A DNA stretch of 64,000 nt from contig JAUCBJ010005165.1 of the NCBI GenBank assembly GCA_032718475.1, positions 12,075 through 76,074 of the forward strand. The letters run 5' to 3'. This document shows, one piece after another, positions 1,846 to 61,032 of this stretch (position 1 is the first letter of the stretch; each line of letters opens with the position of its first letter). The notes under the pieces are model-generated. The model saw nothing but the letters and a program-made list of their open reading frames with translations. It made no database searches and was not told the origin of the DNA. The DNA comes from Nemertoderma westbladi (lineage: Eukaryota; Animalia; Xenacoelomorpha). Made by a program: the position numbers and the translations under genes.

Positions 1846-3099
1846 TTTATTAAGGTAGCTAGTGTTTTTTTTTCGTTTTTTTTTTTCGTTTTTTTTTTGG
1901 TTGGTTAACAATATGTTTTTATAATTTCAAAATATACTAGCTAAAAAAAAATACGCTTGATATTTAAAAAAAAACACTAGCTACAATTAAAAAAACATCT
2001 GCTAATGTTCCAGGACATTCACCAATATTAAAAAGACAAAAATAAAAAAATAATAAAGTACAAAAAAATAATAAAAATTAAAGATTTTGAACAATTCCCT
2101 AGCTACCATAATAGCTAGTGTTCTAGAACAAATTTTTTATTGTAAAATGTTGAAATAATGTCTACATGATATTTACAATAATGTAAATCAAAGATAAATT
2201 GTAAAAAAAAATTTAATTTTTTAAATATAGGGTGGAAACTGCAAAAGTACCGGATATGCAGGTTGTCTGGTATGTTTGTGCACATTAATCCCCTGGGATG
2301 GTCCTGACTGTATATGGCTCTCTCCCAACCCTGGTCATTATGATTGTTTATATATTTCATGTGGATATGGTGGGTGGGTTTGCCTAGATGCATTCATTTA
2401 TATTATATGCAGTATAATTTATTGGATTATGTTTAACTGCTTTGTGTTATAATTATAATTTTCTATTCCAGTTGCTATGTGATGTTGCATAGAATCTGGT
2501 GGTGGGTTAGGCCTATCTACATAGTGTAATCTATCTGAATAGAATGGCCTAGCCTCTGTATTGATAGTGTCATATTGCTGCATGGGCTGCATGCACCTGG
2601 TATAAACTCAGACTCCTACAGTACCAATATAAGCCTATAAGATAGTTTCCTAGCTACCAGTAGGTATGGAACTACATCGGAGTTTCGCCATCGACCTCAT
2701 CTTTCCCCGATTTCGGTGGCATCCCTAGGCTCAGACCTAATGCCTACCGTAGTTGTTTGCTTGTTATATTGCACATTGTTTTCTGTACAATTTTCTACCT
2801 TATGTTTGTGGGGTTGCTGGTGTAAAAGATGTAAATAAATCCCCATTTAGAATGACTCACCAGTGATCTGGGGGGTCATTACAATCAATCTAGGTTGAAA
2901 TGAGTCCACCGTTTGAAATGAATCCCTTCAAAGATATCCATAGGTTAAATAGTAACCTGCACTCTTAATAAGATGTGATTGTTTATCTATGAATGTATCT
3001 GAATGTTATACTAGAAGGTCATGAGAAAGCAAATAAATTGGAGATGAGCTGTTGCAACTGTAATTAAAGGTGTAATATTATGGGTTTGTTCAGAAGTGG

Positions 3100-3200
3100 A
3101 AAAAATGGGAGCGCGTCACCGGGGGTTGAACCAGCGCTATACGCACGTTTCGGCCTAACAGGCCTCATCAGTAGCGCTAACCAGCTCAGCCACTAGCCCC
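3100..3200 (-). promoter_or_regulatory. tRNA-type internal Pol III promoter (A box, B box) and T6 terminator bracketing the hammerhead; repeated at +340, +680, +1020
   Basis: A box TGGCTGAGCTGG (3192-3181) fits TRGCNNARYNNG. B box GGTTCAACCC (3132-3123) fits GTTCRANNC. TTTTTT at 3105-3100. 5' end GGGGCTAG resembles a tRNA start. Confidence 0.7.
3133..3178 (-). ncRNA. Minimal type I hammerhead ribozyme, copy 1 (intact core)
   Basis: Minus strand reads AGCGCTA CTGATGA GGCCT-GTT-AGGCC GAAA CGTGCG TA TAGCGCT: stem I, CUGAUGA, stem II, GAAA, short stem III, and GUA cleavage triplet (cut between 3140 and 3139). Confidence 0.92.
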
Positions 3201-3472
3201 TGACACTCGCAGTCCCACCTAATCCACTTCTATTGAACGGGCAGTCTTAAGTTGCAAATATTCTATCTCTAACAGCGGACCTAACGGCCTCAAGTATGCT
3301 AGAGTGAAACAGGAGGGAAGTACAAATAAATAAATATTCAGCCCGGTATTGCTGCCAGGTGATATTAATTAAATAAATTAGAGATGAGCTGTTGCAACTG
3401 TAATTAAAGGTGTAATATTATGGGTTTGTTCAGAAGTGGAAAAAATGGGAGCGCGTCACCGGGGGTTGAACC

Positions 3473-3518
3473 AGCGCTATACGCACGTTTCAGCCTAACA
3501 GGCCTCATCAGTAGCGCT
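3473..3518 (-). ncRNA. Hammerhead ribozyme, copy 2 (closing pair of stem II changed to G-U)
   Basis: Same as copy 1 except plus-strand g>a at 3492. Confidence 0.8.
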
Positions 3519-3812
3519 AACCAGCTCAGCCACTAGCCCCTGACACTCGCAGTCCCACCTAATCCACTTCTATTGAACGGGCAGTCTTAAGTTGCAAATA
3601 TTCTATCTCTAACAGCGGACCTAACGGCCTCGAGTATGCTAGAGTGAAACAGGAGGGAAGTACAAATAAATAAATATTCAGCTCGGTATTGCTGCCAGGT
3701 GATATTAATTAAAAAAATTGGAGATGAGCTGTTGCAACTGTAATTAAAGGTGTAATATTATGGGTTTGTTCAGAAGTGGAAAAAATGGGAGCGCGTCACC
3801 GGGGGTTGAACC

Positions 3813-3858
3813 AGCGCTATACGCACGTTTTGGCCTAACAGGCCTCATCAGTAGCGCT
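3813..3858 (-). ncRNA. Hammerhead ribozyme, copy 3 (G12>A, predicted inactive)
   Basis: Plus-strand c>t at 3831 turns GAAA into AAAA. Confidence 0.75.
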
Positions 3859-4152
3859 AACCAGCTCAGCCACTAGCCCCTGACACTCGCAGTCCCACCT
3901 AATCCACTTCTATTGAACGGGCAGTCTTAAGTTGCAAATATTCTATCTCTAACAGCGGACCTAACGGCCTCAAGTATGCTAGAGTGAAACAGGAGGGAAG
4001 TACAAATAAATAAATATTCAGCTCGGTATTGCTGCCAGGTGATATTAATTAAATAAATTGGAGATGAGCTGTTGCAACTGTAATTAAAGGTGTAATAATA
4101 TGGGTTTGTTCAGAAGTGGAAAAAATGGGAGCGCGTCACCGGGGGTTGAACC

Positions 4153-4198
4153 AGCGCTATACGCACGTTTCGGCCTAACAGGCCTCATCAGTAGCGCT
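4153..4198 (-). ncRNA. Hammerhead ribozyme, copy 4 (intact core)
   Basis: Identical to copy 1. Confidence 0.92.
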
Positions 4199-4484
4199 AA
4201 CCAGCTCAGCCACTAGCCCCTGACACTCGCAGTCCCACCTAATCCACTTCTATTGAACGGGCAGTCTTAAGTTGCAAATATTCTATCTCTAACAGCGGAC
4301 CTAACGGCCTCAAGTATGCTAGAGTGAAACAGGAGGGAAGTACAAATAAATAAATATTCAGCTCGGTATTGCTGCCAGGTGATATTAATTAAATAAATTG
4401 GAGATGAGCTGTTGCAACTGTAATTAAAGGTGTAATATTATGGGTTTGTTCAGAGTTCAGAGAGAGGGTTCATGAGAAAGCAAA

Positions 4485-5420
4485 GCAGTCGACCATGCCC
4501 TAGCAGCATACTTGGCTTCAGTTTGCCAGTCCGACCCATTTGTATCACAAATCCTCCACCATAGAACACTAAACCACCACATAGTCCCATCCCTCCAGTC
4601 TCTGGCGCAATCTGCAAATGAACCACAATGGACCACCCTCGATGTTCTCACAAGCCCAGGTACTCAATGGAAGCTATCCAATGCTATTGATCTGAAACTC
4701 CATGAGCAACAACTGTCCCACGCCCCAGACACTCTGTCAACACTCACCAACTCAACATCACTGGCCCACCCTGGTGACTGGCTGCCATGTGAAAGCCTTG
4801 GGCTTCACTTTATGGTATGCCTCTACTGGCTCGTTGTCTGCATGGTCTCTGGCCCATCCCCTTGTCCTATATGCCTATCACCGGCCGACCAAATAGGAGA
4901 CCACCACATAGGATGTAGTGGTGATGGGGACAGAATCTCATGCCATGACTCACTTCAGGATGCAGTCCTCTCAACAGCCCAATCTGCTGCTCTTGCGCCC
5001 GAAGTGAAGTCCCTGGCCTGATACCAGGTTCCTGTAGCAGTCCAGCAGACATCTTCATCCCAAACTGACAAGGAGGCCACCCAACATCCCTGGACATAAC
5101 AGGCATTTCCTCCCTCCAGACGAGAGCTTCCGCCACCCCAGGACATGCATTATCCATCGCATACGACTGCAAGACAGCTGCCGACATAGAAGAGTGCCGC
5201 AAGAGTCTGGAGTTTGCTTTATTCCCCTACCAGTGGAAGCCCTGGGTGGTTTGCACCCTCATGCCTCGGCCACTATGCGGGAGATAGACCGTCTCCAAGG
5301 TCTCAGGCGAGGTATTCCCTCAATGGACTCCACCCGCCACATGTTCCAGCAGTTATCCTTCACGCTCTGGTGGGGAAACGCCACAATGTGGTTACGACAG
5401 GGCCAGGTTTTCCCTTCAGT
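4485..5420 (+). mobile_element. Degenerate C-terminal part of a CRE-like (restriction-like endonuclease) non-LTR element
   Basis: KAVDHALAAYLAS, CPIC..DQIGDHHIGC zinc knuckle, RISCHDSL, SPADIF, LDIT and FIPLPVEALGG across frameshifts. Confidence 0.7.
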
Positions 5421-5930
5421 CCTGCAAAATAAATATGAGGGACAAAGTTTTCGACGAAATAAAATATTTTATAAAAACTCGTATATAACCAAATGATGTT
5501 GGAAGTGACAAAGGTAATAAAAGATCTAATTTCCATAGAGGAAATGCTTATAAGATGAACTTGATTCAGATGATGTTTTACTAAGAATTATTGGAAAAGG
5601 ATTATAATTAAAAAAGTATGCTGCATTGAGAACCTGGAGGAACAAAAAATTGGAATAAAAGTATTTCATGAAGGCAATGAAATTAGTGGCGAAGCCAACA
5701 ACGCACTGGCAGGGGGAGAATGGAAAATTGTTGCAAGAGGTGTGTTTTTGGTGGTCAATGCAGTCCCATGATAAAAAAATTAAATTATGTTGAATACTGA
5801 TAACTGAGGAATAGTAGACCTATAAGGGGATTTATTTAAACCCGGAGACATCTTTTAAACCTGCAATAGTTTGTATTGAATCCCGTTGATCAAGGGTTTC
5901 ATTTAAAACTAGGTTGTAATTAATTGTTAG

Positions 5931-16059: not shown

Positions 16060-17094
16060 GTAAGTTAAAAAGATATGATCTGTACCAAAACTCAAATAAG
16101 AAAAATCGGATACCTAGGGGGTTAAAGAAGATAATGATAATCATGATAAGAAATAAGATATAAATAATAATAAACTTTACTTGTAATTAATGGTAAATAC
16201 AATGGGCAATGTATAGTATAAATACATGTCCATCGTTCGTGGGGCCTTCGGATGAAGTAAGGTAGTTTATCATATGGGTACCACTATTCCAAACATTGCC
16301 CTCTCTACCTGGAGACAGGAGAAATGCGCGAACTGAGACTCGAGTCATTTGCTAGACTACATTTTCGAAAAACTACATACCAAGTTTGAAATTATTTCAT
16401 TAATTAAGTCTTTAGGCTTCAAACTACTGGATCTTCTATATTTTCTACACACATGTTTATATATGATATGGTCAAGCTCTAGACATAACATTATCCTTTA
16501 TATTTTATCCCCACTTTATCCTTTATTTTATCAGCAAAGAATATGTGTAACAATGCCATTGATAATGACTGCAACATTGTAACTGAAAAGTGCGAAGAAA
16601 TTCAAACATATTTTCGATATAAATGTGTTGGTATGTATTGGAAACATTTATATGTATAATATCTGTATAATAATCTCAAATATCTGTATAATTATATACA
16701 TCAATTTACATATGGGTTGCTCATTTTAAAAATGGTATTATTTGCATTACAAATTTAAGTGATATTTGAGGCGTTTAAGAATAGGTCTATTTGTATTTAC
16801 CATGTCTACTATACGGTGCGGTGTGGGGGAATCAAGTCATCCTTCAATACAGGCCATGCAGCTTATATGTAGGGAAAATTAGCTTAGAAGGCAGAAAGTT
16901 TCTGTATTGCACACTATTACAGTAGTACTAATAGCACAGTGCTGGTTGTTGATGTTAGACTAATTGATTGACAGATTGTATTACTTTAATTAGTTAGTTA
17001 GCTTTAATAAAAACAAGATTTGTTTATATAGTATTACCTAAGACTAATGTTTCATAATCTCGGCTATAGCTGATCGAAATACGACGCCACTCAG

Positions 17095-20000
17095 AACCAA
17101 ACCCCGTAAAGGTTGATCTTGCAGCTCAGTGCATGGGTGGTGGAGAAATGACCCCCACAACCCTCGCACTTCTCGGGGAGACCTGGTGGGGTGAGGCCGT
17201 CCTGGAGGGACAGGTTGTCCCGGAACTCCTCCGGACTGAGGTCGGTGGAGTCAAGGACACTCGGTTGGGCGGTCAGCCAGCCCCCGGTCTTATTGAGAAC
17301 CGCCCGTGTCGCGGTTCGCTGTTGGTCAGCTGGTAGCGCCCCCAATGCTGCCTCCCGCTTCTCCTTGTAGGCAGAGTCCTGAGACACCCGGCTCTCGCAG
17401 AGTACATGTCGCATGGTGGGGTTCCGCAGGCCAATGCCACCATGGCGAGCTGGAAGAAGAACCTGCTCCTCATCAGCCGAACTGAGTAGGCTTCCAAATA
17501 GGGTGGGGATGTATCGCCGGAGGAGCGCAGTCCGGATCGGGGTTACCTCTTCCACGTCTGTGGGGACAACTCGCAGCAGGTAGTCCCACTCTGCCTGTAC
17601 ACAGCGGGACAACCCAGTGTGTGCCATTTGGGGGAACTCCGTAGCGACTTCCGCGAGTTTGTTTATGCTGTCCACCCACCCGGAAACCTTCTCATCAACG
17701 AACTCCTTGAGACCAGGGTGCTCCCCGATGTAGCCACCGAGGAATCGGTGTCCCTTCACTATGTGGACTCCGCTAGCACCAAACATTGCCTCCGCATCAG
17801 CCTCCCACCCCGGCTTGACGATGAGATAGCTCTTCGTCGGCTCGGGGATGTATCCGATGCTGGGGCCCACCTGGAGGAGCTCTGACCACCATTCCCAAAT
17901 CCCAGACAAACTGCCCACCGAGGAGGCATCATCGGCGTACCAGTATTGGCATTGCGATGGGATGGTGGGTTGTGCTGCCTGGTCGTCGTGGAGTGACAGT
18001 TCAGAGTCTGGTGACGTCGCCGTTGGTTTGGAACCTGACTCGATCGACGGGTGGCAAAGCCGATCCATTGGGTGGCGGCCCAGATTCAGGGGGTGGCGAA
18101 CCGGCAATACTGGGTTGCAAACAGGGCTGGATCCATGACGAACTGGACTCACCACATGGTGACTGTGTCACAATGGGTGGTGCCAAAACCAACTCGCTTA
18201 GTGGTGAACCAAATCCACTACGTGGTGAACCGTATTCGCTGGGCGTTGGTGAACTGAACTCGCTGGGTGGCTGAGAACCCAACGATAACGCAGGTCGGGG
18301 AGAACCGGGTTGGATGGGTTCTTCTGGGGCCGACGGGGATTGCACCTCGCGCAACTTCCGGACCACGGGCAGGGTCCCGCAGCCATATCCCTACATCGCG
18401 AGGGGGTCGCCCTGAGGCCAACCCTCTTGGCTCCACAAGGGGGCGGAGGAACCAGACAGATAAAGGGCGGCGTGCCCATTGTAGGCATTGAAGAGGAACC
18501 TCGAGCACCTATGCCAGTAGACCCGGCAATTCCACAAGGCGACGGGGTGACTCAGGCTGTTGAACGTGTTGCGTGCATCCACCAGCAACATGGCCTGAGT
18601 AGACTCTTCGTCGAACAAGGAGGACATCGCATGGACGGCGCCCTCAATGCCGGCCTTCACCCCGACACAAAGCTGGTCCGCCCCACACTGGAGAACGATG
18701 TCCGATTTCGTTGCCATCACCATACAGTTCGCTAGGAGGCGGTAGAGCACCTCGCCAACTCCGATTGGGTGGACCCTGGGTTCCTTGACTAGTGCTACAA
18801 GACGACATGCGCAAAGTGCCCGGATCTCACCCCATGGCACGATAGAGTTCAACAAACGATGCGCCAAACTAGCGACGGCCTCGCGCAGCTGGGCGCTGTG
18901 GTTGTCGTACCGAGTCAGCAGAGTGTGCCACAGCTCCGCGTCGCCTCCTACCGGACCGGAGCTTCCCTGGAGAGCACGGGCCGCCTTCAGAACATGCTGT
19001 CCGGTAACATCAACGCTCTCTAAAGGAGGGAGGTTTACGCAGAGGTTGAGGACAGAGGGAGAAATCGTCATCTGAGGAGGGTGTTTCTCTTCCAGGGCGT
19101 CCCGGACTGTAAAACCCGGGGGTTTACCCTCGGCTTGGGCGTCGGGGTCCAGTCATGCAGGTCCAGCCCCCGTCGTGCTCCGTCAGCATCCGGACTGCGG
19201 ACCGGTTCATCCCGGCGAGGACCTTCCGGTTGAAGATCCTCGCAGTGTTGGCTGGGGCCGCCCCTCGGGCCGTGGGGAACTTCGAGTTGCAGCGCTCCGC
19301 CTCCGCCAGAAGGGCCTAGAATTCCCCGCACTCCCACGCCCTCAATCGTCTGAGGACAAGCCGCCGGACGTCGGGGCTCTTTGCCACGTCCGGATCTCTC
19401 TGAAAGACCATGGCGACTAGGCACATTGGGCGTTCGGACCGACAATCTCCCGCCGCAAACTTCTCCATTTCTTGGGCGAGGAGGTCAACGACCTTGCGGC
19501 CCACATTGCCTCTGGGAACCACGTACTGGCGGCTGGGTAGTTGAGCTAGTAGGCTATGGCGTCTCTTCCAGGTTGGGTCGGTGGACGAGCCTGGGGAGTT
19601 AAGCCAAACACCCTCAAAAGCGTCTTCTAGAACCTGGGAAACTGATAGGGGGCCGTAGCTGCCGTCACCACAGAAACGGTTGAGTTAGTGGGACTACCTG
19701 GACTACCAGTGGTACTGCTAGAGTGTACTGCCTGCGAACCGGCGGGACGCAGTGTCTGTGTCAGGTAAGGGTAACTCTCATCCCCCACGCTTTGGGAAAG
19801 CGGATCAGGGACCAAGGTGGCGTCCGGGTCGACTAATGCGTTTGTTGTAGTACCGGTAGCTGATTCCGGGTTCTTGCAGCCGCTGGTTGACATGGGCCGG
19901 CAGTTATTGCACGGCCGTGACGCACGAATGCACCCACAGCGGCTGGTAGGGCCACAAGCGGAGACATCGCATTTGCAGCAACGTTGTGAGCTCTACAACA
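17095..20000 (-). mobile_element. CRE-like non-LTR retrotransposon, degraded, 3'-truncated at the zinc knuckle
   Basis: N-terminal Cys cluster (CCKC...CGC...PCNNC). RT motifs RLVALVK, PIGVGEV, LVDARNTFNSL, QGDPLAM, WYADD, FLGGYIG, HGGIGL. C-terminal CEGCG..THALSCK. GC-rich relative to flanks. Confidence 0.85.
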
Positions 20001-20210: not shown

Positions 20211-21558
20211 GGTAATGGTGAAAAATATCGAGACTTGAAAAATATCGAGAGTAAAAATAACGAGAGTAAAAATATCGAGAGTAAAAATAACGAGTGTTGA
20301 AAATTAACGTGATTAAAAAATATCGAGAGTAAAAATATCGAGTGTTGAAAAATATCGAGAGTAAAAATAACGAGTGTTGAAAAATATCGAGAGTAAAAAT
20401 ATCGAGTGTTGGAAAATATCGAGAGTAAAAATATCGAGTGTTGAAAAAAATCGAGTGTTGAAAAATATCGAGTGTTGAAAAATATCGAGTGTTGAAAAAT
20501 ATCGAAAGTAAAAATATCGAGTGTTGAAAAATATCGAAAGTAAAAATATCGAGTGTTGAAAATTATCGAGTGTTGAAAAATATCAAAAGTAAAAATATCG
20601 AGTGTTGAAAAATATCGAGAGTAAAAATATAGAGTGTTGAAAAATATCGAGTGTTGAAAAATATCGACTGTTGAAAAATATCGAGTGTTGAAAAATATCG
20701 AGTGTTGAAAAATATCGAGTGTTGAAAAATATTGAGAGTAAAAATATCGAGTGTTGAAAAATATCGAGAGTAAAAATATCGAGTGTTGAAAAGTAACGAG
20801 TGTTGAAAAATATCGAGAGTAAAAATATTGCATTTTACTTGAGCATTTTATTTAGAATTATGGAACAATATTGCAGTGCATGGGTTTCAACAGTGCAAGT
20901 GAATGACATTATGTAATACACCTTGGGTACCCATTTACCAGAATTATTATACTAGCTAGTTTTTGCTATTTTTTTAATAAATATAATAAAAGACGTGCTA
21001 GCTATAAATTTTGATAAATATTATAAATATTGTTAAATATTATATTAGAACACGTACTATAAAGCTACCAAATGTTGATAAATATTGTTGTTCTAGAACA
21101 TTTTTAGTAAAAAAAATTATCATACAACCCTTATTTAAAAAAATTGTTACTATCGATATTTTTCTCTCGATATTTTTCAACATTCTATATTTTTCAACAC
21201 TCGATATTTTTACTCTCGATATTTTTCAACACTCGATATTTTTCAACACTCGATATTTTTCAACACTCGATATTTTTACTCTCGATATTTTTCAACACTC
21301 GATATTTTTACTCTCGATATTTTTACTCTCGATATTTTTCAACACTCGATATTTTTACTCTCGATATTTTTCAACACTCGATATTTTTTACTCTCAATAT
21401 TTTTCAACACTCGATATTTTTACTCTCGATATTTTTCAACACTCGATATTTTTACTCTCGATATTTTTCAACACTCGATATTTTTACTCTCGATATTTTT
21501 CAACACTCGGTATTTTACTCTCGATATTTTTCATGTCTCGATATTTTTCAATATAACC
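20211..21558. mobile_element. Foldback element with long minisatellite-built inverted arms
   Basis: Left arm 20211-20830 is made of aaaaatatcgagtgttg / aaaaatatcgagagt units; right arm ~21150-21558 is the reverse complement. Flanks are cataatat (20203-20210) and cataatac (21559-21566), a TSD with 1 mismatch. Confidence 0.85.
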
Positions 21559-24361: not shown

Positions 24362-27356
24362 CCCTGTATGTCCCACTGAGACCTACAGGTAACAACTTCT
24401 ATTCTTCACTACTACAGCCGCGTTTCAGCATTGTGTGGTTTCTTGATTGGTTGCATGGGTTCATTTGTTATCCAAGTTACCCAATCAGCGTCATCTTGGG
24501 TCAGAGGCAATCTCAAACTGAATATTAAATCATTTGTGTCTCGTGGACAGAGTTATTCCAAGTAGTGTTCAAGTGCTGATTGTGCAATCCAAAAAAGCAA
24601 ATCGAGTGCAATTATTTGATTCAGAAAAATTATTTTGGTGAAGATTCATCATTATTTTACTTAATTATACCAAAATTGATGCAAGGTATAGTACTATGAA
24701 GAATTCACAGCCAAAATTTCAGTCGTTACTTTAGGGTAACGGTGGGCCACTCTGACATCACTTTTTGTGCTAAATGTGAACTGGTCAATAAATTGATATA
24801 CAATACTCTCTTATGATTCCACGTTGTTTTGTACACCTAGGTAAAGAATAAGTTTGCTGACTAAACTACTAAATATATTATTATAAATAGATATTAATAA
24901 ATAGTCGGAATATTCAATAAATAGATAGAAATGTTCGTATTCTCTGTACAGCTGTGCGTAAGTTACACTGTAGAAACGTATTTGATGATATGGATACTGG
25001 AAAATTTTATGGAACACATTATAAAAACTCTCATGTTGAGGTGTCCATACCGTCAGATGATAGCGACGATCAACTGATGAGTGATTCTGGCAGCGAGGAT
25101 GATGCATATGGTGATACAAACTGGAGTGATGAAGGTGATGACTCTGACGAATCAGACGAACGCGATGATGACGTCATTATAGAGTTCGAGGAAATAGAGG
25201 ATGTACTAGCAGATCCAACGATCAATACCGATGATGAGAACATACAGCCAAATCAGATAGAGGTAGATGCGCCAGGGGAGACAGTACATCATACAGAGGA
25301 CGAACAGAGTAGTGGTGGCGATGTGCAGGTCGAACCAAAGACAAACAAGAAATCTAAGAAGAATGTAGTCAACCGGAAGTATTATAGGACAAAGACGATT
25401 TCTGCAGAGCCGAAATGGCTGGGTAGTTTACCTGATGTAGATGATGTTCTAGAACCAATCAGATATTTCAAGAAGCTTCTCAAAGATGATGTGTTGAAGG
25501 AAATAGTTTTCCAGACTAATGTGTACTCTGCAGAAAAACGCCTTGATAAACAAATAAATATAACACGAAACGAAATTGAACAGTTCATAGGAATTTGCTA
25601 CTATATGTCTGTGTACGGTCTTCCTAGATGCAGATCATATTGGCAGGCCGGTACAAGAGTTGATAAAGTTGTCAACACAATGATGACGTGCAATCACTGG
25701 GAGAGTATAAAAAGAGATCTACACTTGAATGACAATAGTAAGCAAATCGCTAAGGGGTCTCCTGGGCACGATAAAATTTTCAAAATCCGACCACTGGTTA
25801 CTGCTCTCCAGACCAGTCTAAGAGACATTCCAAAGGATGAAGAGCTTTGTGTGGATGAACAGATGGTGCCATTCAAGGGGAAAAATAAAAGCGGAATAAA
25901 GCAATATATGCCCAAGAAACCAAAGAAGTGGGGCTATAAGCTGTTTGTTCTTTGTGATAGCCATGCTATGGCTTACGATTTCGATATTTACACGGGAAAG
26001 ATCGAACCGATTGCTGGACGGCCTGACATTGGGGTAAGTAGTAATATAGTAATTCAACTAGCTGTTGGCATACCTAGACACATGTCATACAAACTCTTTT
26101 TTGACAACTGGTTTACTAGTGTTATTCTCCAGGTGACACTGGCCAATGAAGGAATATATTGTCTTGGGACAGTCAACGAGAACAGATTAGGTGACTGCCC
26201 TCTGCCCACGGATAGCGCAATGAAGAAGAAAGGTCGTGGATACCATGAGGAACTGAGATTTACTGTAAAAGGAGTTGACTTGCGCATTGTAAAGTGGTTT
26301 GATAACCGTTGTGTTACTCTCTTATCAACATTCTCTTCCACGAATCCGACGTCTCTTGTAAAACGGTGGTCTAAACTAACTAAATCATTCATTGAAGTAG
26401 ATCGCCCACGTATTGTTGGCACGTACAATAGCTTCATGGGTGGGGTTGATACACTGGATTCTTTGTTGAGTTTGTATAGGATACGAATACGGTCTAGGAA
26501 ATGGTACCTTTGATTGGTCTTCCATTTCCTCGATTTTGTCTGTGTCATTGCTTGGCTCTTGTACCGACGTGACTTGCGTAGCTGTAATCCAGCACAAAAA
26601 CCAATTCCACTCCCTATTCAAGACGACATTGGCCGAGACCCTGTGTGCATGTGGAAAGTCTGTCTGCAACAAGCGACGAGGGCGACCAAGTCTAGAAATT
26701 GAAAACGGTATTCTTCAGAAGAAAGCGCGATCAATAACCGTTGGTCTGTTGCCTTCCATGGCAGTTCGACAATGGCAGTTGGCCACTGGCCTGTGTTCGC
26801 TGAGAAAAGGGGACGGTGCAAGAATCCAGACTGTGTTGGGGTTCCTAAGATTATGTGTGAGAAGTGTAGTGCGGTGTCTGGAGGAAAGGTATATTTGTGT
26901 CTTGGACTGGACCGTAACTGTTTCAAATGCTTCCATTGTGATTGATAACGAATTGGGTATCTATCAATTTTGGTAATTGCTATCGCATTGATGTTGAATT
27001 GATGTTTGGTTTTCGATATTACATACAGTACAGGGATACAATTTTAGTTGAAAATCTATAATTTTGTATATAATGTAGAGTGCGGAGCAGAATAATACAG
27101 TTTGTACATTTCTGCATATTTTACACATGAACACAAAATGAAAAAAGTTGTCGCATAATATGTTTCCAACTTTTTCACAAAATTTTTTTCAAACTCCTAA
27201 ATTTCATTTCTTAATGGCCCACCGTGACCCACCATCTTCATAAATTAAATATTTTGAAATTTTTTGATGAATATCATCTCATTAGGTTCATTTTAATGTG
27301 AAAGTTATGAAAAAAAAAATTTTGGGACATGGCATCATAATTCGGGCTATAGAGGG
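24362..27356 (+). mobile_element. Full-length piggyBac-family DNA transposon
   Basis: TTAA at 24358-24361 and 27357-27360. Termini CCCTGTATGTCCC and GGGCTATAGAGGG. Subterminal inverted repeat gggtaacggtgggcca (~24734) / tggcccaccgtgaccc (~27215). Confidence 0.9.
24990..26945 (+). pseudogene. piggyBac (PGBD-type) transposase, open for ~507 codons, then a TGA at 26511 and two frameshifts before the Cys-rich tail
   Basis: DDD motifs CVDEQMVPFKG, FFDNWFTS, YNSFMGGVDTLD. Acidic N-terminus. C-terminal GHWP..RGRCKNPDC..CEKC..YLCL..RNCF..FH in a shifted frame. Confidence 0.9.
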
Positions 27357-30918: not shown

Positions 30919-32760
30919 TTATCGCTTTCGTTTGGGGTACTTGGGAGTACTGCGCATAAAGAGTCGTTTCCTCCTTTTCGCGGGTGTCCGGGGCGCAGGC
31001 AGCGCAAGGTCGTCGCTCGAAATCGTCTCGTCGGGACCTGGGTGTATCTCCACCGCGTCAGGCATCGGAGAACTCGGACGATCAGTATATGTTCCGGTGG
31101 AGGTGCCGGGTAAGGACAGGAACTCAGCCGGTCTCGTGGCGCGTGAGTCGACAGGCAGTCGACAGAATCCCGGTTCCAGGGGAGCGGCTAAGCACTTCCG
31201 CACAGCAGTTTGCACTGGTCCGGAGGGGACAGTTTGGGTAGCAATACCAAACGGAAACTGTTGGCTGGGGAAAATTCTCGGAGGCACAGCGTGTGGGACC
31301 GGTCCTCACGATGAACGTGTTCTTGGAAGGCTCGATGCTGTGGAAGCAGCTCGGGATGTCTCTCCAGGAAGTGGGGACCATAAAACGGGAGTCTTTAACG
31401 TCTTAAAATGGGAGAATTTGATTGTTGTAAGACGTCACGTCACATGTTCTGGATGTATTTCTCGAAGAAAACGTCGGACGAAACGGGTATTGGTGCAGGA
31501 GGCTACACGGTTGAGGAGTTTGTAGCTGGGTATCCAAGCACATTGGACGTCAGTGGTGCAAATAAAAGGGGTAAGGAAATGTCGAAAGCATTCGAAGTTC
31601 AAGAATTTACCGAATTCATTTAGCTTGGCAAGTTGGGTTCCTAATAGCAACGGGTGCGCTCTTAACGTATGGCTACATACGTCCGCAAGCCATCCAGATA
31701 ACGCTTGGTTTTCGAATATGAGGTACATTGCCAATGAGGTGCGCAAGGGGACACTCATAAAACTATACACGGCACCGGGAGCGGTGAGTGGTCCCTGAAA
31801 ATAATAGGGCGAATATGCGTCACCATAAACTTGAGAATACGTCTCACGATTGGTCTCCTTGAAGTTCCAATCGTACTCCTGAAACGCGATATGGCCGGAG
31901 GAAGTACGATCAACTCGGTTATATGTATCGTTAGCGATGCGTCGATACATAACTCGGAAGAAGCCGCGAGATTGCACCCAAGGAAGGATAACTTGAGTGT
32001 CGACGAAGGGATATGGTATATCGTGGACAATAGGAAAATCATCCGTTAAGTCCTGATATATGGCTGAACCGAGTTTGTAGACGGATTCATCCAACAGAAT
32101 GTCTAACACTGGTTGCGGTAACAAAGCGGCGTCGATTCCCATAGCCGGGTGTCAGTGTGTGTCATTGACATAAGCCTCCGCTTTAACAAATTGTTGATGT
32201 CTCGCACGGCGTTGATAAGCAGTCAAGGCGGGGAAAGCGCTATCGGGTCAGGGTGAATACCTTTGGGATAATGAGTTTGTTGAGTTTGGGCCGCCGCTAT
32301 ATTTAAATAAGTTTCCCAAAGGAACGTAACTAAGTCTTCGAATTTAGCCACATTATCGCTGGTTTCCGCATCGTTCGCCGACATGGTATCTCGGATGGCG
32401 TCTTCCTTATCTATCCGAGCAGTGTCCTCCCATTGTTTCTGTACATGATAATGCCACATTTCCATGTCTTGTCGCTCATGAACATCTTCGGAGTATACAA
32501 GATCGCTCGGATGTCCAGATATGACAAACGGTTTATAAGATCCATCTATATTAGTATACCTGTCCATAAAGGCGCGGTAATGCAGTCGCTCTGATATCTC
32601 TACCGGGGACATTAGAGGTTCCGTATACTGTTGCGGTACTCCGGAGTCCGGGTGTCAACAAATCCTCCATCATCTCTCGCATACCTCGATGATATTCCTC
32701 TGAAAGCTGTTGTCGCTGCGTATTAACATTATCCATTGAATCATCCTTAGAAGTATCCAT
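30919..32760 (-). pseudogene. Decayed ~614-codon orphan ORF inside an unidentified intronic insertion
   Basis: The listed ORFs 32551-32781, 32223-32612, 31435-32142 and 30919-31287 chain together. Three in-frame TGA stops at 32152-54, 31435-37 and 31306-08, plus two compensating frameshifts. Ends KRRKRLFMRSTPKYPKRKR-TAA. No recognised domain. Confidence 0.55.
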
Positions 32761-40948: not shown

Positions 40949-41701
40949 GGGTGTAAACTTTATGCCCATGCCCAAGACCCAAACCCATTACCAAAACCCA
41001 TGCCCAAAACCCACGCCCAAAACCCATGCCCAAAACCCATGCCCAAAACCCACGCCCAAAACCCATGCTTATGTTTATAAAACCATGCTTATTACATGGT
41101 ATTATTTATTACAAAATCCATGTTTATTGTTCATATGGTTGTGAACTCAGAATAGCACGTACAATAACAGAAATAGCTGCTTATTGACGATCTTATTGGC
41201 GATCAAGATTACAGATATAGGGGGGGCTATCTGTTAGACATTAGGCCTACAATTACACCGTGTCCGGCAACCATCCTAAGGCCCACCAAGCACCAGTACC
41301 ACTAACAGTTCATGTGTTTCCAGTTTCTATCCATAGAAAAAGTTATTTTGTTTAGTGACAGTGTATTTACAAGGTAGATTGGAAGAAAAAGGATGCTGGG
41401 CTTCCAATTATGGATTCTGAGAAACACACCAACCCACACACCCACTTTTAGAAAACGGCCATAGTATAATTATATAAGCTCACTGATGGCACGCAGTTTT
41501 GACTCGCCCCACATAACAGTACAGCAGTACAAACTACCTGGCCTTCTACTTCTAGGCCTCCAGTTATTTTATAGCCATAAAATATAAGCTAAAACTTGGA
41601 CTAAGCTTTGGGAATGGGTTTTGGGCATGTGTTTTGGGCATGGGTTTTGTGCATGGGATTTGGGCATGGGTATGGGTTTTGGGTATGGAACGTTTACACC
41701 C
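40949..41701. mobile_element. Mutator-type MITE (753 bp)
   Basis: TIR GGGTGTAAAC...GTTTACACCC with subterminal (aaacccatgccc)n arrays in inverted orientation. 9-bp TSD ttctcctat (40940-48) / ttctcctct (41702-10). Confidence 0.85.
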
Positions 41702-52019: not shown

Positions 52020-53215
52020 ATAATAGAACGATAGAAGGCAAATTTTATATGTTAATTATTTAATGTTCTGATAGTAGCCAAGATTTCAAAGCTCGGTTGA
52101 ATTGATATTTCTTAGGTAAGATGCGTATATCGTTTGGAATTTCATTCCAAATTACAGGGTCCTGGTATTGTATCGAAAATTGGCCCCTAGCTGAATTGAA
52201 TCTAGGAATGAAATATTTGTTACTTGTAGTTGGATATATTTATTATAAGTACAACCCCATAGTTCTATACCATAATTTAATTTAATATGTATTAGACTAA
52301 AGTAGATCGATTTTAATACAAATAATGGTAGGATGTGACGAATTTGAAAGAATAATCCTGTTAACTTTTATTATTATTAACACAGTGAAATATTATAAAA
52401 TGAAATAAAATTGTCACCGGAGAAAAACAACTAGGTACACTTACGGTAAAAACCAGGTACACTCACAGTTGCTAAGCGGACACAGAAGAAAATAAAAACA
52501 GACACCAAACGGAATTATCAGAAAGAAAGTGACCAATGCATCTAATTAAAATATACAGTATATCCAATGGTAATTTAAAAATCAATAGTATACAGAGGGC
52601 CAGTGCTGTTCAACTAATTTTGAAGTGACAATTTAACTAAACCCAACTAAATAATTAAAAATGACTAGTTAAAATAAATACAAGTTACAATAAATATGGT
52701 CAATGCAGGTCTGAGAGTTTTTATCTACACGAGTTGGTTGCTTAATGAGCTGCTGGTAGCCGTGCTCAGCTAATTTGTGGAGGAAGTCTACACTAGGTTG
52801 TTTCTTATTTAAAATGTTAATATTAAAGTCGCTGCAGATTATGACATTATAATTAGTAGTATCAGTCAATTTTTTAAGGTTAGTATCCAAATTATTTGAA
52901 AAGGTCTCAAAATTATAAGAGCCAGGACGACATAATGCACCAACAGTTATGCATTCGTTATTGTGAGGGTTGAGTACCTCTAGCCAAATATTTGTCCTTT
53001 ATGTCCTTTAACATTAAATCATTTTTTAATGAACCTTCGAGTCCTTCTTGAATATAAACAGCAACAGCGCCTCTGGCTTCATTATTTGCTTTATTACATA
53101 TAATTGGTTTTTGGTATCCATCAATATTTATTAAATTCTGCTGATAATCATTCTTCGTATAAGTCTCTGTGAAAACTAATATATCGAAGAAGTTATTTAA
53201 ACTTTTGGCATGGAA
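52020..53215 (-). mobile_element. CR1/L2-group LINE remnants: AP endonuclease (52670-53215) and 3' terminus (52020-52380)
   Basis: FDILVFTETY, RGAVAVYI, IICSDFNIN, PTRV..QTCIDHIY; RGQFSIQYQDPVIWNEIP. Confidence 0.75.
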
Positions 53216-54710
53216 ATCACTAGTAGAAGATAAGTCCATACTAATCCTAAAACCTGATAAAGGAAATGGTGTAGTAATTTTAAACAGGACCACATACATA
53301 GACAAGGTACTAGGAATTTTAAACAGGACCACATACATAGATAAGGTACTAGTAATTTTAAACAGGATCACATACATAGATAAGGTACTAGTAATTTTAA
53401 ACAGGACCACATACATAGATAAGGTACTAGGAATTTTAAACAGGACCACATACATAGATAAGGTACTAGGAATTTTAAACAGGACCACATACATTGATAA
53501 GGTACTAGGAATTTTAAACAGGACTACATACATAGACAAGGTACTAGGAATTTTAAACAGGACCACATACATAGATAAGGTACTAGGAATTTTAAACGAT
53601 AAAAGTAAATTTAAACGTTTATCAGACTGTCCACAAAAGTGGGTTGGGGGAGCAATTCGGTTAGAGGAACGTTTTAAGAAACTCCTCAAAGGTTTACATA
53701 AAACTTGGGACATTTCAAACAAGGAGCTCGAAACTCTTCTGCCAGTAGGAACACATCCAGGGATTTTATATGGCCTACTGAAGGTGCATAAAAAGGATTA
53801 CCCCATTCGCCCAATATTATCCGCCATATCATTCCTGGTTATAATCTGGCAAAATTTTTGGTAAAAAGGTTAGGGTCACTGGGTACTAACAAATATACTG
53901 AAGGGACACATTCTCCTTTGTGAGGGAAATAACTGACATTCAAAATGCCAATACCATGTACATGGTAAGCTTCGATATCAAATCACTGTTTACTAATATT
54001 CCACTGGACGAGACTATCGTCATCATTCTTACTCATTTGTTCCGTAACACAGACAAGGTCGATGGTCTAAACCGTAAGCAGATTAAGAGCAGACTAGAAC
54101 TAGCCATTAAATAATCTGAATTTATTATTTATGGGGTCAAATATAAACAGGTAGACGGTGTAGCTATGGGTAGCCCTCTTGGTTCTCTCCTAGCTAACAT
54201 TTTTCTTAGTTACCATGAGGAGCATTGGCTTGAAAATTGTCCTTCAAGTATAAAACCAATTCTGTACCGTAGATATGTGGATGACATTTTCTAATCATTT
54301 AAAGACCGCAGCCAAGCCGATCTATTTTTGCAATTTTTAAATACACAACATCGTTGCTTGGAATTTACCTCGGAACTTGAAAGCAATGGGACATTGCCTT
54401 TTTTAGATATTCTTATAACTAAAACTTGTTCAGGCCTCTCAACCTCCATTTACCGGAAGCCTACATTCACAGGTTTATACTCTAAATTTGATTCATTTAC
54501 ACCGCTCAAATTTAAAATAGGATTAGTAGTTACCTTGTTACATCGTACCTTTATGATCTGCTCATCTTGGATTAAATTTAACAGTGACTTAAGGACAATT
54601 ACACGAATTGTTAGCTAAAAATGGGTACCCTCGAGAACTATTATCATGGCTGACAGATAAACTAATTGTTAAACTTGTTGGTCCCAAACCGACCGTAGTA
54701 CATACAGTAA
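53215..54710 (+). mobile_element. Penelope-like element RT fragment
   Basis: ILKPDKGNGVVILN, LYGLLKVHKKDYPIRPILS, MVSFDIKSLFTNIP, QVDGVAMGSPLG, YRRYVDDIF, LPFLDI, IYRKPTFTGLY; several stops and frameshifts. Confidence 0.9.
53277..53598 (+). repeat. In-frame 39-bp tandem repeat (8 copies of ILNRTTYIDKVLG) inside the Penelope RT
   Basis: Unit aattttaaacaggaccacatacatagataaggtactagg. Confidence 0.95.
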
Positions 54711-56390: not shown

Positions 56391-58981
56391 ACAAGTTTTA
56401 ATTATTAACCATATTTCGTAAGATATATTTTAAAACATTTATTTATTAATAATGCAATAACTGAATAACCAGGATTAAATTTGAGGATAAAAGGATTAAA
56501 TTTGTACTCAATAATTCTGCCGTTTAATTACGTTTAGATCAATTAAAGACACATTTATTAAAGCAAATCACTTGAACTAATTAAAAACTATAATAGAATG
56601 GCGTATGTGGATTACATCTGTATAATTTTTAAGTATAATTATTTAAATCTTATACTGTAAAACAATTAATTTCCTTTAAAAGGCAGGTTGAAAATGGTGT
56701 TTTCACCGTAATCAACTTAATTAACTAATTAACTGCTATTATCTTAGCTTCTCGAAGGCCACACGGAAACGGAAATTCTACTTGGAAAATTTCTAAACTT
56801 TTGCCAAACAACATGTGTACCAAGTTTGGATAGATTTCATCAAAGATTGGCCGAGTTATTAACGTTTAAAATTGAACGCGACAGAATGACAGAACGACAC
56901 GTTCGTGGGGCCTTCGCGCAGCACGAGGCCCAGTTATGAGATACAAATTAAAATTGAGCGACTGTATCACAAAATCATGTTTTGAGAAATTTACCCACAC
57001 CACCAATCAATCAAAGAAAGTACGTGTTCACCCCTTTTAATCCCCCCCCCCCCCCCCACCCTTCCCAACCACCAATACATAACTGCGACATCTACCACCC
57101 ACGGAAGGGTAGCACGAACTTATTTCCAATCGCACGTTCAATATGCAAAGCCAGGTGGTTTATAGGAATATAATAAACGCAGTACTCGTTTTCATTATAA
57201 GCCTCGTTGCGTTCGTCCTGTTTTGTATTTAAATATATTTCTTAAACGCAGGCTAGGACGATCTTTATAATAATAACTAGAAAGCCTGTGGCCCTTCGGG
57301 CCACAGCTTTCTAGTGCACGTGCAGATGATATATGAATATGTGTGGGAGATTTGAGAACTGCATACGGAACAGACACCATCATTAAATAAAACACCACCC
57401 CCATAAGAGATAACTGTCAAGTTTCAACTTTAGGCAGATTGTAAATAACAAAATTTCCAGAAAATGATCACTTTCAGATCCACCCTCTACCTGCGGACTG
57501 GTGAAATGCAGACGGCACTGCAGTTTGGTAAAGATGGGGTTTATGGTGAAGTAAAATGCCTGCCTTTCAAGTTTCAGCTTAAACAGATTGTAAATAACAA
57601 AATTGGTGTAGATGTTCACATTCAGCAATTTCACCCTCTAGCGGTAGACTGAAGAACTGTAGACGACTCTGGGACTCCGTAAAGATACAGAATATACTGT
57701 AGTAGATTCCTGCCAAGTTCCAGCTCAATAGGATTAAAAATAACCAAATGGGATGAGGTGTTCACTATCAGATATTTCGTCCTCTAGCGGCAGATGGGAG
57801 GACTGTATACAACTCTGCGACTCCGTAAAGTTACAGCCTATGCTGTAGTAGATGCCTACCAAGTTTCAGTCTAAACCGTTAGTAAATAACAAAGTTGGAG
57901 AAGATGTTAACTGTCAGACATTTCACCCTCTAGCGGTAGACTGGGAAAGTGAATAGGATTCTGCAACTCCGTAAAGATACAGCCTATGATGTAGTAGATA
58001 CCAACCAAGTTTCAGCTCAAAATGATTAAAAAGAACCAAATGGGATGAGGTTTTCACTATCAGACAATTCGCCCTCTAGCGGCTGACTGTGGAACTGTAG
58101 ACGACTCTACTACTCTGCAAAGATATAGCCTATGCTATAGTAAATGCCTACCAAGTTTCAGTCTAAAAGGATTGTAAATAACAAAGTTGGAGGAGATGTT
58201 AACTTTCATACATTTCGCCCTCTAGCGGCAGACGCGGGTAATGTAGACAACTCTGCGCGACTCAGTAAAGATATAGCCTATGCTGTAGTAGATGCCTACC
58301 AAGTTCAGTCTAAATGGATTATAAATAACAAAGTTGGAGAAGATGTTAACTTTCAGACATTTCGCCCTCTAGCGGTAGACTGGGGAATTGTAGACGACTC
58401 TGCGACTCAGTAAAGATACAGCCTATGCTGTAGTAGATGCCTACCAAGTTTCAGTCTAAACGGATTGTAAATAACAAAGTTGGAGAAGATGTTAACTCTC
58501 AGACATTTAGCCCTCTAACGGTAGAATGGGGAACTGTGGACAACTCAGTGACTCCGGAAATATACATCCTATGCTGCTGCTGCAGTATATAGCTACCAAG
58601 TTTCAGCTCAAAAGCATTAAAAACAACCCAATGAGATCAGGTTTTCACTATCGGACAATTCGCCCTCTAGCGGCAGGCGGGGAACTTCAGACGGCTCTGA
58701 GTATTACGTTGCAACGAGTTAGGGCGAGACCTATCTAACGAGCTATAGTAAGCGAGATTTCATCGAGATTAGATGTATAATATTAGATAAAATAATAATA
58801 CAGTAATTAGGCCTACTGTACAAAAATAATTACTTTTAATATTCATAACAGTAAAACAAAAATGTTATAAACCTGTCCTTCCATGCATCCATTGATTGAG
58901 AAAGCAGAATTAGTCTTGGACAGTTCGCAACAGACAACCCATCCCAATCAACACTCCACCAGCCTGGCTTGCAACTTCTCT

Positions 58982-61032
58982 GGTAAACGGACAGGTTGTA
59001 TCCAGACAAGTTGTATCCAATTTCCTATTCTTAGCTTACAAAAGGACATTTTGTATCCCGATTTTCGGACATGTTGTATCCAACTTATTTACGTTGTAAA
59101 TTAACTGTAATTCTATCCTATTGAATAATATAATTAACTAGGCGATCCATAATCATAATACTGTACATTATACGATTAATTAGTTCAGAGCATTTCTTTC
59201 TTTCTCCAATCAGGATTTCTCACTTTAATAGCATTGTGTAATGGAGGTCAAACAAATGACACTGCATCATGAATATGTAGAGGAGGTCAAACAAATGACA
59301 CTGCATCATGAATATCAACTGTAAATCCATGTAGTAACAGTTTAATATTTTAGCGATCTCGATTATATGTTCAATTTGTAAATTACATTTTAATTAATTA
59401 ATTTTTAGTTATTGTACCAATATATTCTTCCTTGTATCAAAAAACTCCATGGCCGTGTATCAAAAAACTATACACGGTAATTCTAAACTTTGCCATGATG
59501 GCAAAATGTATTCCAAACGGAAAACCAACAAGGATGGGTCTGAAATGTGGGTTTGTACCAAACGACCCCACTGTATTGGTTCCGTAAAGACATTGACTCC
59601 ACACTCAACCGAAGTCATTACTAGTAATCCCCATAACTGTATCGATTCTCCGATTGTGGAATTGTCAGCATTCCGACAGAGAATAGCGGACCAGGCCTCA
59701 TCATCCCATACCAAACCCACCCAAATCTATTGTTCCTCACTTCGGGATCTTGATTCAAAGTTGCACACCAGTTTGCCGCAACGTTCATCACTGCTGCGGC
59801 AGATACGTCGTGTAAGATCACGCCACCTTCCCCCGGATCCGAAATCACTAAAGGAACTCTCATTCCATGGTGACTCCATCATCGATTTTATAACTTCAGA
59901 TAATGGAGGAAAGTTCCTCCAATATGACAATGGTGTCAATGCTGATGAGAGAATTGTGGTATTCTGGACCGATGAATCTATGAAATTTCTACGTAGTTCG
60001 TCAGAATGGGGAGTTGATGGCACATTTGCAATCGCTCCCAAACCGTTTTACCAGTTATATATAGTCTGTGCCAAGGTGTACACTCGTATGCTGCCACTGC
60101 TTTATGCATTTCTCGAATGCAAAACAGAAACTACTTACTCGGAGTTATTCAATGTGATCGCCATGCAAGGGGCTTCACCTTCGGTTGTCCACGTGGACTT
60201 TGAGAAGGCGGCACACAACGCAATCATTGCGGCTTTCGGCGACAGTGTGACGTTTGTTTTCTGTTACTTCCATCTCCGGCAAGCGATTAACAAGCGCATT
60301 CAAGAGCTTGGATTGAAATCTCACTATCAGTCCAATTTGGAGTTTAGGTTATGGGCCTCCAAGATTTCTTCACTTGCTTTGCTGCCAACAGATAAAGTGA
60401 AAGATGGGTTCCGCATAATACAAGACATTGCCCCCAGGGAAGGCGCCGAACTGTTAACCTACTTCGACCGAACCTATCTGAGTGGACCTCGACGTATTCG
60501 TAGCGACAGCAATGGCCTTGTCTCGAAGATACGTTCTGCGGGACCCTTATTTGCAGTTGAGAAGTGGAATGTTCATGCAGCCACATTAAATGACTTTGGC
60601 AGAACTAACAATGCTTCAGAGGCTGTTAATCGTGATATTTCTACCATTATAGGAAGTAAGCACCCTTCTGTGTGGAAACTTATTGATGCTCTAAAAGCGA
60701 AAGATGCTGATGTCCAATGTCAACTTGCTCGGGCCGCAGTTGGACAGCTAGAGCCACGTCGAGAAACTTTAGAATCTAAAACATTTGATAGACGCATAAA
60801 GACGCTCTGCACTGAGATTACCAACCAACAGCGCACTGTGGAGAGCTTTCTCATTGGTGTCGGCGAGAACATAGAGTTATTAAAGAGAAGAAAGACATTG
60901 TTTTCAAATATCAACGTAAGTGACTCTGAAATGGACAAGGACTTCAAATAACTCCGTGTAACATTTTGGCTAATAACTTTGTGTAACGTTTTAGTTTAGT
61001 TTTAGTAACAATGTTATCATGTATTATATAAC
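58982..61032 (+). mobile_element. Mutator-like (MULE) transposon inserted in unit 1, left TIR only
   Basis: Starts GGTAAACGGACAGGTTGTATCC with repeated ttgtatcc motifs. Absent from unit 2. Host sequence resumes at aataggccaattcg (~61033). Confidence 0.8.
59449..60951 (+). CDS. MULE transposase with FLYWCH-like N-terminal zinc finger, intact 500-aa ORF
   Basis: WVCTKRPHC...PHNC finger; catalytic WGVDGTF, HVDFEKA, FCYFH (CxxH), RTNNASEAVN; uninterrupted ATG to TAA. Confidence 0.9.
   Translation: MAVYQKTIHGNSKLCHDGKMYSKRKTNKDGSEMWVCTKRPHCIGSVKTLTPHSTEVITSNPHNCIDSPIVELSAFRQRIADQASSSHTKPTQIYCSSLRDLDSKLHTSLPQRSSLLRQIRRVRSRHLPPDPKSLKELSFHGDSIIDFITSDNGGKFLQYDNGVNADERIVVFWTDESMKFLRSSSEWGVDGTFAIAPKPFYQLYIVCAKVYTRMLPLLYAFLECKTETTYSELFNVIAMQGASPSVVHVDFEKAAHNAIIAAFGDSVTFVFCYFHLRQAINKRIQELGLKSHYQSNLEFRLWASKISSLALLPTDKVKDGFRIIQDIAPREGAELLTYFDRTYLSGPRRIRSDSNGLVSKIRSAGPLFAVEKWNVHAATLNDFGRTNNASEAVNRDISTIIGSKHPSVWKLIDALKAKDADVQCQLARAAVGQLEPRRETLESKTFDRRIKTLCTEITNQQRTVESFLIGVGENIELLKRRKTLFSNINVSDSEMDKDFK

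Follow-up and report, generated by a model that had tools for sequence, protein, structure and literature searches.

A 64,000-nucleotide stretch of Nemertoderma westbladi DNA (the window) holds an array of 340-bp units that we read, with a probability of roughly two in three, as a non-LTR type of retrozyme, a mobile tandem retroelement without coding capacity, in which tRNA-type A and B boxes surround a hammerhead ribozyme; the unit is likely read by Pol III, and its RNA is predicted to cleave itself as a dimer and give rise to a circularised 340-nt molecule. On the transcription and the origin of animal retrozymes, this family offers a putative internal promoter that can be mutated and a different candidate origin. 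The features of the array are collected in Table 1.

Table 1. Features of the array and of its first unit, in window coordinates
Feature	Position	Strand	Basis or remark
Target-site duplication, left copy, 15 bp	3019..3033	plus	last 3 bases shared with the element end
Array of 4.2 tandem 340-bp units (98% matches; 7 substitutions between units)	3034..4454	minus	tandem-repeat detection gave 3031-4454
15 extra bases at the 5' junction, starting with a 7-nt repeat of the element end	4455..4469
Target-site duplication, right copy	4470..4484	plus
Long interrupted helix (3229-3197 with 3124-3094) enclosing boxes and hammerhead	3094..3229	minus	folding prediction
Segment collinear with eukaryotic tRNA-Asn(GTT), 55 of 74 tRNA positions identical, 25 gap columns	3114..3204	minus	alignment
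A box	3181..3192	minus	sequence
Type I hammerhead, core unaltered, predicted cut between 3140 and 3139	3132..3179	minus	Rfam match
Core CUGAUGA	3171-3165	minus	sequence
Hammerhead stem II	3152..3164	minus	central 7 nt (3161-3155) equal the tRNA-Asn anticodon loop at 6 of 7
Core GAAA	3151-3148	minus	sequence
Stem III (2 bp) and loop	3141..3148	minus	near-palindrome in the window
B box	3122..3132	minus	sequence
T6 run	3100..3105	minus	sole run of at least 4 T on the minus strand of the unit
Predicted 340-nt monomer, cleavage site to cleavage site	3140..3479	minus	sequence and folding prediction
Hammerhead copy, C11.1U at 3492 (G-U at the stem II base)	3472..3519	minus
Hammerhead copy, G12A at 3831	3812..3859	minus
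Hammerhead copy, core unaltered	4152..4199	minus

The array is a recently inserted four-copy run and represents one mobile insertion. Among assembled contigs of sequencing runs, a 606-nt contig of run X2 carries window positions 2800-3033 at its 252-485 and 4470-4605 at its 471-606, and a 719-nt contig of run X4 joins the same two flanks through a single copy of the target-site duplication. Both are empty sites, and the single-copy duplication in each indicates that the array is a polymorphic insertion with target-site duplication. Runs X2 and X3 come from one sample and X4 from another study (the source of the window could itself be one of the runs); X1 and X5 have no coverage of the right flank and are uninformative on the empty site. 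No open frame of at least 120 aa was found in the array, nor any similarity between the array and the rest of the window. The 3' end of the element shares three bases with the duplication, an overlap that would be expected from target-primed reverse transcription. The ends of the insertion coincide with neither the predicted tRNA-like start nor the cleavage site: the 5' end, at 4454, precedes the first tRNA-like start by about 235 bases, and 240 nt outside the box-hammerhead cassette move together with it. On its far side the insertion adjoins the edge of a broken coding fragment (4476-5496) that we take, from its motifs, to resemble the end of a CRE-type non-LTR element; a Pfam scan of this fragment gave no match, and further fragments like it are found at 17091-19992. 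With four units and no start at a tRNA head, the insertion is not a standard tRNA-derived SINE, which would start there and finish in a simple-repeat or LINE-like tail. Such SINEs, and the tRNA-bearing TRIMs (Helenus), do resemble the unit in keeping A and B boxes while the remaining tRNA decays (PMC10886601), but as described there they are without a ribozyme, whereas the insertion described here is a permuted multimer.

On the minus strand, positions 3200-3100 read as an earlier sequence-only reading had quoted them, and the central proposal of that reading, a hammerhead between an A box and a B box followed by T6, is borne out. Rfam RF00163 (Hammerhead_1) matched 3177-3134 over its full length, all pairs being standard (23.4 bits, E 0.00086), a score from a focused scan that falls below the gathering score of 34; at gathering thresholds, an Rfam scan of the whole window gave no matches. 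The conserved core, the three helices and the open stem I of this type are all in place. In 20000 dinucleotide shuffles of the unit, no A box was followed at 20-80 nt by a strict B box (8 shuffles qualified with a looser B box), and elsewhere in the window neither a strict B box nor an A box paired with one was found. That every 340-bp unit reads alike holds for two of the four hammerhead copies; the others carry substitutions in the core or stem II, and the G12A copy is presumably inactive, as established knowledge of the ribozyme would have it. Palindromic words make up all three hammerhead helices (window 3132-3179), with self-complementarity at 8 of 8 positions in the 5' strand of stem I, 6 of 6 in the 5' word of stem II and 6 of 8 in stem III (8 of 8 in the majority allele of the family). 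Stems I and II read as direct repeats, and the whole pattern fits an origin by short duplications or by strand swapping in dimers. The predicted monomer begins with the B-box side and ends with the A-box side and the core. The high similarity of the units might also suggest an ordinary satellite grown by unequal crossing-over, with its motifs there by chance; this is barely credible in view of the target-site duplication, the Rfam match and the box shuffles, and the empty-site contigs already contradict it.

The repeat belongs to a many-copy, variable family. Contigs aligned on the stretch numbered 2251 for X2, 1414 for X3 and 1161 for X4, and summed depth, about 40-190 beside the junction, rose to as much as about 4e5 within the unit, a roughly thousandfold excess that is not a copy number; such contigs cannot show strand, ends or level. 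Conservation across copies, which the sequence-only reading had proposed to check, holds for boxes and core: among the 16 substitutions listed within the unit none falls in the catalytic core or B box, and the single one in the A box retains a purine. A B-box variant in X4 also matches the consensus. The majority allele at 3144 (84%, 94% and 97% of summed depth) turns stem III into a perfect 8-nt palindrome, the middle base of loop II (3158) is variable (29-50%), and a G-U variant at the base of stem II (3152) is common (18-34%). Within the enclosing helix, two changes (3108, 3209) give G-U pairs, 3211 and 3212 are unpaired positions, and 3206 is ambiguous. The covariation that was likewise to be looked for did not appear, no two-sided compensatory change being present in this helix or elsewhere among the variants listed. 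The T6 run is retained in a diverged subfamily (contig loose ends at 3110). Run X1, which is only guessed to be RNA, includes a single self-closing contig (371 nt, depth 5.5) with a unit of 341 nt; because a circle and tandem DNA yield the identical contig, it says nothing on expression.

Folding predictions point to an RNA larger than the cassette. The strongest predicted helix is the one that encloses the boxes and the hammerhead, with pair probabilities of 0.92-1.0 for its outer 14 listed pairs, and since it spans from 30 nt before the predicted start to past the T6 run, the structured RNA would exceed 100 nt. Relative to shuffles, the 146-nt region around this helix has a z of -2.22, and the circular 340-nt unit, 60% paired, a z of -1.45 (19 of 200 shuffles as low), which makes the circle as a whole only modestly stable. 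With the window's own base at 3144, stem I has a probability of 0.04 in a short RNA and 0.21 in a long or circular one, and the hammerhead is predicted to be largely misfolded; with the majority base, the probability is 0.9-0.95. A 439-nt two-unit RNA (predicted start to the next unit's T6) carrying the majority base is predicted to form a nested double hammerhead with pair probabilities of 0.86-0.96, at +1.6 kcal/mol versus +11.2 for two single hammerheads; the window base places the double hammerhead at +5.1 kcal/mol. Two cuts in this structure would free exactly one 340-nt monomer. The hammerhead is thus modelled to work best as a dimer, and the 340-nt monomer, not the 100-nt RNA, is most likely the mobile form.

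The sequence-only reading had instead made the unit a stand-alone RNA of ~100 nt, tRNA-shaped and self-cut into mimics of tRNA halves. That such an autonomous RNA has a cellular role, the array being secondary, we consider very improbable. The boxes, T6 and core are all real, stem I reaches 0.95 in a 99-nt RNA with the majority base, and a 101-nt RNA with the window allele is predicted to adopt a four-armed shape; yet that fold is no better than its shuffles (z -0.5), ARAGORN at default settings called 0 tRNA genes, and the Rfam tRNA model had no match in the unit at an E of 10 or below. Also against it are the 2-bp stem III, which favours dimers, the co-mobility of the 240 nt beyond the cassette, and a locus that is a polymorphic insertion. 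With a 340-bp multimer insertion, a predicted helix reaching beyond start and T6, and the dimer prediction, the ~100-nt RNA becomes less likely as the main story, and the notion of tRNA-half mimicry is not supported, no cloverleaf being left. A Pol III product of ~100 nt may still be made.

If the array is a mobile retrozyme with its own boxes, Pol III would initiate near the equivalent of 3199 in any unit; the majority of its transcripts would end at T6 and some would continue to the T6 of the next unit. In the 439-nt RNA, the palindromic stem III, together with an exchange of stems I, is predicted to join the two hammerheads, and two cuts would release the monomer with its ends kept together by stem I. 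As in published retrozymes, an RtcB-type ligase would then close the circle, an idea that had been raised for the short RNA and that agrees with a published route: tandem 150-450 bp type I hammerhead repeats are described as yielding circles, ligated by RtcB (PMC7229834). The footprint of the insertion suggests that a borrowed reverse transcriptase of non-LTR or Penelope type, primed at the 3-nt microhomology, would run round the template, after which the multimer would be inserted with a 15-bp duplication. Because the cut falls between the A and B boxes, a copy of the linear monomer would have no intact promoter, and only circles or multimers would restore it; the split-promoter layout predicts that monomer copies are dead and that circles and multimers are live. 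Taken together, these proposed steps would explain every feature observed.

The T6 run is the weak point of this mechanism. Pol III read-through of several hundred bases is reported to be common at human tRNA genes (10.1101/2025.10.17.683076). In human assays with the type 3 promoters of U6, 7SK and H1, T6 terminated fully (PMC5725217), so Pol III may seldom read through and the multimer may come from another polymerase. Full termination in these assays, and the retention of T6 in the diverged subfamily, would suit a two-RNA system in which Pol III makes only the ~100-nt RNA and its 60-nt 5' cleavage product serves as a trans-acting arm, cutting long read-through family transcripts made by another polymerase. 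On a 25-nt substrate, the 60-nt piece is predicted to form a hammerhead with arms of 8 and 7 bp (-34 to -35 kcal/mol), and Sm-alpha hammerheads are reported to cleave in trans in vitro (PMC6765202), but the cis double hammerhead is predicted to form readily without a helper, and we regard the two-RNA system as unlikely. For dimers of Xenopus retrozymes, a preprint reports cleavage in one of nine tested (Li 2026, 10.64898/2026.07.22.740005).

The closest known element is schistosome Sm-alpha, although the unit is not an Sm-alpha member. As the sequence-only reading had it, Sm-alpha is a precedent for tandem repeats that combine a Pol III promoter with a hammerhead. In published accounts, the SINE-like Sm-alpha and Sj-alpha (Schistosoma) resemble the unit as tandem repeats in which a type I hammerhead goes with a Pol III promoter of tRNA origin, and single copies of Sm-alpha are said to lose their ability to propagate, hence the need for tandems (PMC6765202, PMC4918200, PMC2770079). 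By the same accounts, however, the Sm-alpha hammerhead follows the promoter and tRNAscan still finds a complete tRNA-Gln there, whereas here the tRNA is Asn-like and without a tRNA fold, T6 comes after the B box, and the cut splits the promoter. It is the nesting of the hammerhead between the boxes, with the cut inside the promoter, that sets the unit apart from Sm-alpha.

The unit also has the testable features of non-LTR retrozymes, namely tandem type I hammerhead units and mobility with a long target-site duplication. Metazoan non-LTR retrozymes are described as non-coding tandem units of 150-450 bp with one type I hammerhead each and a GC content under 50% (PMC7229834; 10.64898/2026.07.22.740005), with long target-site duplications (15 bp in Nematostella; PMC4918200) and a short palindromic stem III suited to dimers, all of which they share with the unit. 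In contrast to the unit, which has both boxes, they have no internal promoter or tRNA boxes reported in the searched text of these accounts (PMC7229834, Li 2026), and the Li 2026 preprint derives retrozymes from Penelope terminal repeats, whereas the hammerhead here appears partly tRNA-derived. Retrozymes in general seem to lack promoters (PMC7761336), and passive transcription has been proposed for them generally. The boxes might then be relics, a captured tRNA piece kept for RNA structure or by recent amplification in an array passively transcribed from outside promoters. The box sequences do join predicted helices, and young families appear conserved regardless. Yet both boxes fit their consensus although the tRNA stems have decayed, the B-box variant of X4 is likewise consensus, and the spacing and the downstream T6 suit a working unit, which together make relic boxes decidedly unlikely.

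Engineered tRNA-ribozyme cassettes, made for expression by Pol III, have the hammerhead between the two boxes, as does the unit; they are designed trans-cleavers in an intact tRNA, whereas the present family is natural, variable, many-copy and mobile. A search of mostly open-access papers showed no natural case of a hammerhead set between an A box and a B box, and supplements of retrozyme papers may include one. Pattern searches of viral contigs (0, 120 from 49 of 64 parts, and 3 loci) and metagenome contigs (103), collections that contain little animal DNA, gave a type I hammerhead with both boxes at 0 of 226 loci. Five of the 226 have a strict A-box match and resemble intron-bearing tRNAs (two were checked, both Rfam tRNA). 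At some metagenome loci, a hairpin whose sequence resembles a T loop lies a short way downstream of a type III hammerhead (Rfam E 2e-5 to 0.06): L141 at 36-112 (also L149, L163 and L202) and L129 at 1475-1554 (also L145, L161 and L177). Loop I of L141 resembles a tRNA D loop, and L122 and L133 look like these type III loci but have no Rfam match.

Alignment suggests that the A and B boxes of the unit likely derive from tRNA-Asn. In this alignment stem II, and not stem I as had been proposed, occupies the anticodon-arm position; the core GAAA aligns with the tRNA bases directly after the anticodon stem, and stem I consists of the D-arm 3' strand (3179-3172) paired with 3139-3132, the latter overlapping the T-stem 5' strand. 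The cloverleaf (acceptor, D, anticodon and T stems) is gone and the unit is not a tRNA gene: what the sequence-only reading called a tRNA scaffold survives as ancestry, while the fold goes undetected by ARAGORN and the Rfam tRNA model. At a relaxed score ARAGORN read loop II as an Asn anticodon, beside clearly spurious calls, and a profile built from 46 mostly prokaryotic tRNAs left the unit undetected.

Three window words, picked with the Asn idea in mind and thus a biased search, fetched 36 loci, 29 of which were called tRNA-Asn(GTT) and are collinear with the unit. In phage-dominated sets, the D-arm word was Asn in 4 of 92 unique tRNAs and the 3' word in 1 of 50 (36 were Arg), and among 392 unique tRNAs one phage Asp scored 58.5 versus 56.5 for Asn; the unit's exact A-box word had no matches in the phage-dominated search. 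These tests do not single out Asn. Since the word search was biased and the phage tests unspecific, we assembled a panel of eukaryote-type tRNAs, drawn from small contaminant contigs of GTDB genomes and judged eukaryote-type by eye. One initiator Met that failed to parse was dropped, a Tyr gene and two others were apparently mislabelled by ARAGORN, and the panel, which is without Phe, Trp, Gln, elongator Met, Sec and most Arg, is not the host's tRNA set. Contigs L508-L515, L517 and L518 are small contigs in prokaryote assemblies that bear eukaryote-type tRNA clusters with T-run terminators, apparently contamination.

Among the 37 tRNAs, Asn scored highest at full length with each of four scoring schemes and with both start points, and its score was equalled by 8 of 1500 shuffles in which the letters of boxes and core stayed in place. 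Against 34 tRNAs (contigs of one genome), it also came first with the flanks alone (45 vs 40; 64 of 3000 box-preserving shuffles reached 45) and with the middle alone (21.5 vs 19.5, or 18 vs 16 with the other loop allele). Of 20000 random stems II, 250 attained the middle score of Asn and 774 did so on the global score; for the best score against any tRNA in the panel the figure was 113 of 2000. A tRNA-Leu source, which shares the first bases and the A box, was rejected at 35.5-36.5 versus 50.5 for Asn.

Whether the hammerhead was assembled in place within a tRNA-Asn gene, and not pasted in, which would make this a retrozyme of independent origin with a promoter-splitting cut, we judge to be evenly poised. 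The anticodon arm would have become stem II and tRNA bases 41-44 the core GAAA; the D-arm 3' strand would form one side of stem I and a duplication of that palindromic word the other, with two short insertions bringing CUGAUGA and stem III. This hypothesis is post hoc, and a priori it is likelier that a ready-made hammerhead was grafted in. Should stem II descend from a tRNA anticodon arm, this would be a natural hammerhead arising from an identifiable host gene, a rare trace, and would support independent hammerhead origins, hitherto argued from in vitro selection (by a title cited in PMC6765202).

Elsewhere the window holds reverse-transcriptase fragments at 196-1672 (RVT_1, DUF6451), a long DDE_Tnp_1_7 (piggyBac-type) frame at 24921-26513 and a long FLYWCH and MULE transposase frame at 59398-60951, all from Pfam. 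Several minus-strand open frames of 128-238 aa lie at 30919-32654, two of which were scanned with no Pfam match. A fragment at 53163-53864, which by its motifs we take to resemble a Penelope-type reverse transcriptase, gave no relevant match in a Pfam scan; a 39-bp repeat in frame with it (8.4 copies) interrupts the fragment. One 146-bp unit recurs in three separate arrays at 57561-64000 (76-80% matches), in which no type I hammerhead was found. Two pairs of oppositely oriented short tandem arrays, with 17/32-bp and 13-bp units (20219-21551 and 40981-41671), resemble the inverted arms of fold-back elements.
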